Shown here: positions 13,076 through 13,146 of the stretch, one piece after another
Layout: every line of letters begins with the position of its first letter
How positions within the stretch are numbered: position 1 is the stretch's first letter
NCBI GenBank assembly: GCA_964016885.1
Contig: OZ024745.1
Span: 23,250,001 to 23,314,000 of the forward strand
Reading direction: 5' to 3'
From: Eledone cirrhosa
Taxonomy: Eukaryota
Length of the DNA stretch: 64,000 nt
Notes under the pieces: generated by a model
Seen by the model: the letters and a program-made list of their open reading frames with translations, nothing else
Databases searched by the model: none
What the model was told of the DNA's origin: nothing
Made by a program: the position numbers and the translations under genes

Positions 13076-13146
13076 ACGCCCTGGGGCGAGATATCTTGTC
13101 TTTAAAGCGTAGAAATATCCGAGACCCCCAGTAGACAACTGATGAG
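13076..13146 (+). ncRNA. Putative non-circularly permuted hammerhead ribozyme, copy 2
   Basis: ACGC-C-CTGGGG..GATAT-C-TTGTC..GCGT-A-GAAATATC..CCCCAG-TA-GACAA-CTGATGA-G; predicted cleavage after AUC at 13095. Confidence 0.6.

Follow-up and report, generated by a model that had tools for sequence, protein, structure and literature searches.

A putative self-cleaving hammerhead-type fold of SGC block order in short tandem repeats of the Eledone cirrhosa genome, and its likely link to Naiad Penelope-like elements

The motif described here lies in a window of 64,000 nucleotides from Eledone cirrhosa (positions 23,250,001 to 23,314,000 of the forward strand of contig OZ024745.1, assembly GCA_964016885.1), and all positions given below are those of the window. 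An initial annotation had read positions 13,076-13,146 as a permuted hammerhead. On direct check of the letters, the core and every strand that it named were located where it had put them, and the helices are real. The features of this copy, and of three relatives in the same window, are as follows.

12944..13219, plus strand: family A copy, 5'-truncated and non-autonomous (unit about 576 bp), between (TA)n runs; delimited by blastn against a natural tandem copy (L008)
13048..13054, plus strand: 5' strand of helix X, of which only 13052-54 is able to pair in this copy
13055..13075, plus strand: hairpin P0, arms 13055-62 and 13068-75 (8 bp, mismatched at 13060 in this copy); site of the annotated "upstream word"
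13076..13079, plus strand: 5' strand of helix II, drawn from upstream and not from the bases after CUGAnGA; partner 13107-10
13081..13086, plus strand: 5' strand of the joining helix, which connects stems I and II at their far ends and resembles the 'I' helix of type SGC
13090..13101, plus strand: block S, with a stem III strand, U16.1 at 13094, the cut predicted after C13095 by analogy with the hammerhead core, and a stem I strand
13107..13119, plus strand: block G, with the 3' strand of helix II, the variable junction base 13111, GAAA at 13112-15 and a stem III strand
13126..13131, plus strand: 3' strand of the joining helix, pairing with 13081-86
13133..13145, plus strand: stem I strand and CUGAUGA core (13139-45)
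13146..13149, plus strand: 3' strand of helix X, short in this copy (13052-54 with 13146-48)
9539..9675, plus strand: family C copy whose 5' end is truncated at helix II and whose stem I strand bears a deletion; motif at 9548-9610
37172..37272, minus strand: family A copy, truncated, from the U sublineage; it carries the additional upstream A and has no CUGAnGA block
40057..40274, plus strand: family B copy with the same fold (unit 536 bp); motif at about 40105-40207

The letters of the hammerhead core (CUGAnGA, GAAA and UH) are all present in the window motif. Stem III of the window copy is formed by 13090-94 with 13115-19 and stem I by 13096-100 with 13134-38, extendable to 6 bp. These two stems flank the predicted cut and covary between the window motif and its relatives, and the key single letters of the copy are C13095, A13111 and G13146. 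The blocks follow one another in the order S, G, C (cleavage site, GAAA, CUGAnGA), which is type SGC, a non-circular permutation, and the copy at 40132-40203, said to share this layout, does have the same order and the same fold. When a stem I/III descriptor was run for all six block orders, three SGC-order motifs were found in the window, with cores at 9603, 13139 and 40196; SGC motifs with stems I and III of at least 5 bp numbered two in the window, as against none in 40 locally shuffled windows. Unselected stretches of the genome totalling 400 kb gave one SGC match, and six shuffles of them 0, 0, 0, 0, 0 and 1, so that the window is richer in such motifs than the average. No hammerhead match was returned by Rfam at 12950-13250 up to an E value of 10. 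Of 576 Rfam matches over the whole window, the 150 listed were set aside, all being under their gathering scores and apparently driven by microsatellites.

A comparison of genomic paralogs, as the initial annotation had proposed, bears out its view that every helix carries compensatory changes, since the helices covary across families. In an alignment of 16 copies from about six families, hand-picked and mostly obtained through the stem I/III scan, 95.6% of 527 cells are paired and 19 of the 33 pairs have changed on both sides, although the copies are related and these counts are hence not independent. None of 500 shuffles reached the score of the alignment, and controls in which the strands were slid gave 27-48%. 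Changes on both sides affect five of the eight pairs of P0 and five of the six pairs of the joining helix, and some are seen in helix X as well, where family A stands off by one register in the alignment. Of 54 family A copies, 52 have C or A at the predicted cut and the other two have G, and position 7 of the core varies among the copies as it does in hammerheads. Fixed core letters, a free position 7 and the near absence of G at the cut suggest selection on chemistry.

The reading as a permuted hammerhead stands as regards the permutation and the pairing helices; it does not stand as regards helix II, and it had missed two further helices, P0 and X. G13146 and A13111 had been taken as the single core pair of helix II, and their G-A mismatch as the mark of a possibly impaired copy. 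In 30 position-ordered copies of all families, one of which was dropped as truncated, a classic stem II of at least 4 bp between the bases after the core and those before GAAA is present in 0 of 29, so that none has the unbroken block C of type SGC, whereas a helix II of at least 4 bp made with the upstream strand is present in 23 of the 29, against 25% expected by chance. The letter before GAAA points the same way. Among the first 100 listed of 688 exact family A matches, counted by eye, A occurs there 51 times, U 38 times, G 10 times and C once. (The family A loci ranked best by BLAST always have A, a sample biased to the query.) In 30 of these loci, all 13 copies with A lack an extra upstream base; of the 14 with U, ten carry an extra upstream A, one has another letter there and three are truncated (10 of 11 with an intact upstream strand); and the three with G are mixed in this respect. 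This covariation of an insertion with the letter before GAAA argues that the base, where it is paired, has its partner in the upstream strand. The bases after the core go into helix X. Because A is the commonest letter, it belongs to an amplified sublineage; the window copy is a member of it, and A13111 is no private defect. The annotated truncated minus-strand relative at 37172 does have U before GAAA. The U sublineage and family D close helix II with an A-U pair at 10.1-11.1; family F and most published Naiads have G-C there, and the window copy has no such pair; the common forms of families A, B and E have no Watson-Crick pair adjoining GAAA. Mean identity is 0.85 in the A sublineage (11 copies) and 0.88 in the U sublineage (6 copies), which does not decide their order of age.

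Helix X is made by the bases after CUGAnGA and a strand just 5' of P0, some 90 nt upstream, and reaches up to 7 bp in relatives. The annotated "upstream word" corresponds to the loop and 3' arm of hairpin P0, directly 3' of which begins the 5' strand of helix II. A loose test for helix X had a chance rate of 85% and was uninformative, and a stricter one was used in its place: 12 of 21 filtered copies had at least four Watson-Crick pairs adjoining P0, where 1.1 were expected; the count of 12 is likely too low because the hairpin finder mis-registered several family E copies. Unconstrained folding returned X and P0 in all three relatives that were folded (L004, the 40132 copy and L062); with the window copy it returned neither (z -0.9). 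Helix X is variable within family A, where 18 of 54 copies have the full A-run and 18 of 54 share the short form of the window copy, and its register is shifted by one between families. The P0 change of the window copy recurs in 2 of the 54. The window copy may thus be partly weakened in helix X and P0. With the core, helix X, P0 and helix II placed in this way, a four-way junction is predicted between A9 and position 10.1, the ring consisting of A9, X, P0, helix II and G12. From 5' to 3' the strands would run X 5', P0, helix II 5', joining helix 5', stem III, the UH cut, stem I, helix II 3', and then GAAA, stem III, joining helix 3', stem I, CUGAnGA and X 3'. With the core stacked on helix II, and X on P0, the active site would be a normal one.

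The pattern GAAA, four stem III letters, a gap of 18-21 nt and the core has 16,049 exact matches in the genome, compared with 2 for a backward control. A first look at the 3.0 Gb genome, in which 40 candidates were scored per family, gave 2,552 candidates for the 196 bp around the window motif, 1,777 for the 40132 family and 862 for the family at 9548, and further families, D, E and F, were found in flanks. The motif lies close to the fixed 3' end of tandem units of 536-576 bp inserted in (TA)n. The units measure 576 bp in family A and 536 bp in family B, occur as single, partial and tandem copies and, in tandem, carry one ribozyme motif each. Family B copies are 97-98% alike. The best of them end at the same base in 30 of 30 cases, followed by a TA run in 29 and an AG run in one, and the 5' ends of copies are scattered, as with 5' truncation. 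Among 30 position-ordered family B rows, some of which share an array, 24 reach at least 99 nt upstream of the predicted cut; rows that cross the cut site fit circles but also fit uncleaved templates. No clear pile-up of 5' ends was seen at the cut, the 6 of 30 family B rows that end within -15 to +20 of it being not clearly above a rough truncation expectation. At junctions between family B tandem units (L055, L051) a short TA run stands exactly where single copies end, which suggests priming by homology with the (TA)n target.

Naiads are Penelope-like elements that prefer (TA)n targets and occur as 5'-truncated, tandem and inverted copies; canonical hammerheads were reported absent from them, although half cores sometimes lie 35-50 nt apart and the flags 'HHR_core' and 'HHR_half_core' are given (Craig et al. 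2021, PMC8557442). In the portion of their File S5 available to us, part of 54 consensus sequences in which names were assigned by the next FASTA header, the four-way fold was recognized by eye in eight: Amil, Aacu, Anas, 2_Movir, Plae, 4_Dst, Obim and Ovul. They span four phyla and include corals, a box jellyfish, an acanthocephalan, an ostracod and octopuses. A decayed four-way form is visible in Esco, and seven others have plainer non-circular forms: CSG order with block C intact in 2_Nbra, 3_Nbra, Smim and three unnamed passages, and SGC order with a long insert in Ppla. The motif was not seen in the inspected 3' ends of eleven others (Omin, six bivalves, Dcar, EuTe, 1_Movir and Sdum). Nearly all the four-way Naiads have G10.1-C11.1 with the G from the upstream strand and U, A or C after the core. 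Their helices X are of unrelated sequence yet paired, the pairing being only partial in the two Octopus elements, and Obim has the hairpin loop, a 3-nt linker and a 6-nt linker in common with family B. In the same text the bivalve Naiads CGi, Sglo, Olur, Tgra and Pmar lack the hammerhead core and have a conserved GC-rich stretch directly after the ORF, perhaps another structured RNA.

Within the E. cirrhosa genome, 83 matches to Naiad-like reverse transcriptase (RT) remnants were found, most with stops. An intact motif lay downstream of none of the 20 examined, two of which have possible decayed traces. One RT motif had three matches, two of them Naiad-like remnants, and another had none; a short pattern of the Octopus Naiad ribozyme had none either. 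Searches with RT motifs and with GIY-YIG found no intact Naiad ORF, and the GIY-YIG Pfam search (30 loci and 20 stretches of 150 matches) no ORF with an N-terminal endonuclease. Nor was an ORF with N-terminal GIY-YIG and RT present in or beside the copies examined, the elements being non-autonomous. The (TA)n target, the fixed 3' end and 5' truncation are all shared with Naiads, and the short tandem elements likely derive from them. The permuted fold likely also explains why Naiads seemed to be without hammerheads.

Eckert et al. (2023, PMC10085705) split the hammerhead into blocks C, G and S and, in the text available, assumed CUGAnGA to be contiguous with stem II and not interruptible. The window motif would work like a type-SGC hammerhead but fails to keep block C unbroken. 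It resembles their HRIMA-1 in the S-G-C order, in the short linker that separates stem I from stem II and in the helix by which these stems are joined at their far ends; in HRIMA-1, in contrast, stem II follows directly after CUGAnGA, whereas here its 5' strand lies upstream and helix X and a hairpin are inserted. HRIMA-1 comes from metatranscriptome contigs and the window motif is a chromosomal animal repeat. Like Naiads (PMC8557442), the window element has (TA)n, 5' truncation and tandem or inverted copies, with the fold (by eye) at the 3' end of several Naiad consensus sequences; unlike them it has no ORF. Animal non-LTR retrozymes (PMC7229834; bioRxiv 10.64898/2026.07.22.740005), for which mobilization by Penelope-like elements (PLEs) via circular RNA has been proposed, are likewise short non-coding tandem units with one hammerhead each, but they are defined by hammerheads of type I and by monomers near 300 bp, in contrast to the non-circular permutation and 536-576 bp units seen here. 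A precedent for insertion is the plus-strand hammerhead of CChMVd, which tolerates one additional A at its A9/G10.1 link (PMC3705267); there the insertion is one base, while here two helices and both RNA ends fall at the A9/G10.1 link. In the open literature (subscription papers lay outside the scope, and the Eckert alignments were little covered) we found no non-circular hammerheads in animals or Naiads and no helices inserted at A9/10.1. The accessible text of the 2026 retrozyme preprint describes a search for type I motifs only, that of PMC13725137 gives a single sentence to variants that have additional helices, and no case of helices inserted at A9/10.1 appears in the accessible parts of PMC10162972 or PMC3088659.

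Taken at a probability of roughly 0.7, our main reading is that the locus holds a conserved, covarying hammerhead-type RNA fold in SGC order, in which two additional helices are predicted to make a four-way junction between A9 and helix II and self-cleavage is predicted after 13095, and that the short tandem element carrying it is likely Naiad-derived. By analogy with plain SGC and CSG ribozymes, which cleave in vitro (PMC10085705, in the text available), the fold likely cuts itself, and the cut is predicted after C13095. Cleavage would reduce tandem transcripts to monomers, which would likely circularize as in animal retrozymes, and a Penelope-like RT/endonuclease acting in trans would likely copy these monomers into (TA)n or AT-rich DNA. 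More broadly, Naiads probably carry non-circularly permuted hammerheads (CSG and SGC) and, in corals, a box jellyfish, an acanthocephalan, an ostracod and octopuses, a core split between A9 and G10.1 by the four-way junction. This topology would be active and lie outside the scheme of six permutations, and here it would have more than 16,000 copies in retrozyme-like tandem elements.

It is also conceivable, though we regard it as unlikely, that a real ribozyme sits in short elements which do not derive from Naiads and are independent retrozymes or satellites, mobilized by Neptune-like PLEs or by a different RT. The Naiad-like RTs that turned up here are all decayed, whereas the family B copies are so closely alike, and long open Neptune-like ORFs exist in this genome; against this, the fold and its linkers match the 3' ends of Octopus Naiads in the File S5 text available, and the PLE loci with a C-terminal endonuclease mostly have classic type I motifs nearby. 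The origin and the present mobilizer of the short elements may differ.

A fold maintained as a signal for protein binding or priming by the Penelope RT/endonuclease, catalytically weak or dead and with cleavage irrelevant to spread, seems to us quite improbable. An Anolis PLE does insert in vitro without cleavage, from uncleaved templates (PMC11167929), animal PLE hammerheads have minimal helices and low cleavage activity (PMC4209133), as far as the accessible text of these two papers goes, the junction base differs among amplified sublineages and the 5' ends show no clear clustering at the cut. Yet the catalytic letters have been kept across about six families and four phyla while the helices turned over, and the cut position avoids G, as one would expect under selection on chemistry.

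Very improbable is a helix II closed by a single pair of the base after CUGAnGA with the base before GAAA, the rest stacking from upstream and G-A copies being impaired: in families B, C and D a G-U or A-U pair could form there, and such a pair would suit the minimal helices and low activity just mentioned, but it would be G-A, A-A or A-C in families A, E and F, C stands before GAAA in one of the 100 listed family A matches, that base covaries with the upstream strand, and the published Naiads, in the text available, pair an upstream G with C11.1 and have U, A or C after the core.

If the main reading is true, it closes the stated gap that Naiads 'lack canonical hammerheads', and non-circularly permuted ribozymes go from rare metatranscriptome finds to abundant elements of animal genomes. 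With the assumed contiguity of CUGAnGA and stem II broken, such ribozymes would be missed by Rfam models and by descriptors. The A9/10.1 link would be a new place for grafting helices on the hammerhead core, with thousands of natural variants for structure-function work. Rearranged hammerheads of a named type reportedly occur in frog and shark genomes; no matching paper was found in the open literature.

Other hammerheads and retroelements lie nearby. Inverted pairs of classic minimal type I hammerheads (cores at 21401-21529 and 23311-23448, on both strands) lie on either side of a broken Penelope-like RT/GIY-YIG remnant at 21890-22878, which was identified by eye and had no Pfam match, and related motifs stand at 13454, 35216 and 36625 on the minus strand and 49387 on the plus strand. 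Another type I hammerhead-like repeat family is found at 13811 and 36342 on the minus strand, one copy about 600 bp from the window motif. An uninterrupted ORF of 1156 aa at 41396-44866 on the plus strand has endonuclease, RT and zf-RVT domains in the layout of an L1/Tx1-like LINE. Elsewhere in the genome, two loci (L156, L158) hold long open PLE ORFs of 938 and 1096 aa with a C-terminal GIY-YIG, candidate movers of the short elements. On the minus strand of a further locus (L173), two descriptor matches of type II order (GSC) have cores at 8178 and 8644, 466 nt apart, and are possibly a tandem repeat with another hammerhead form.
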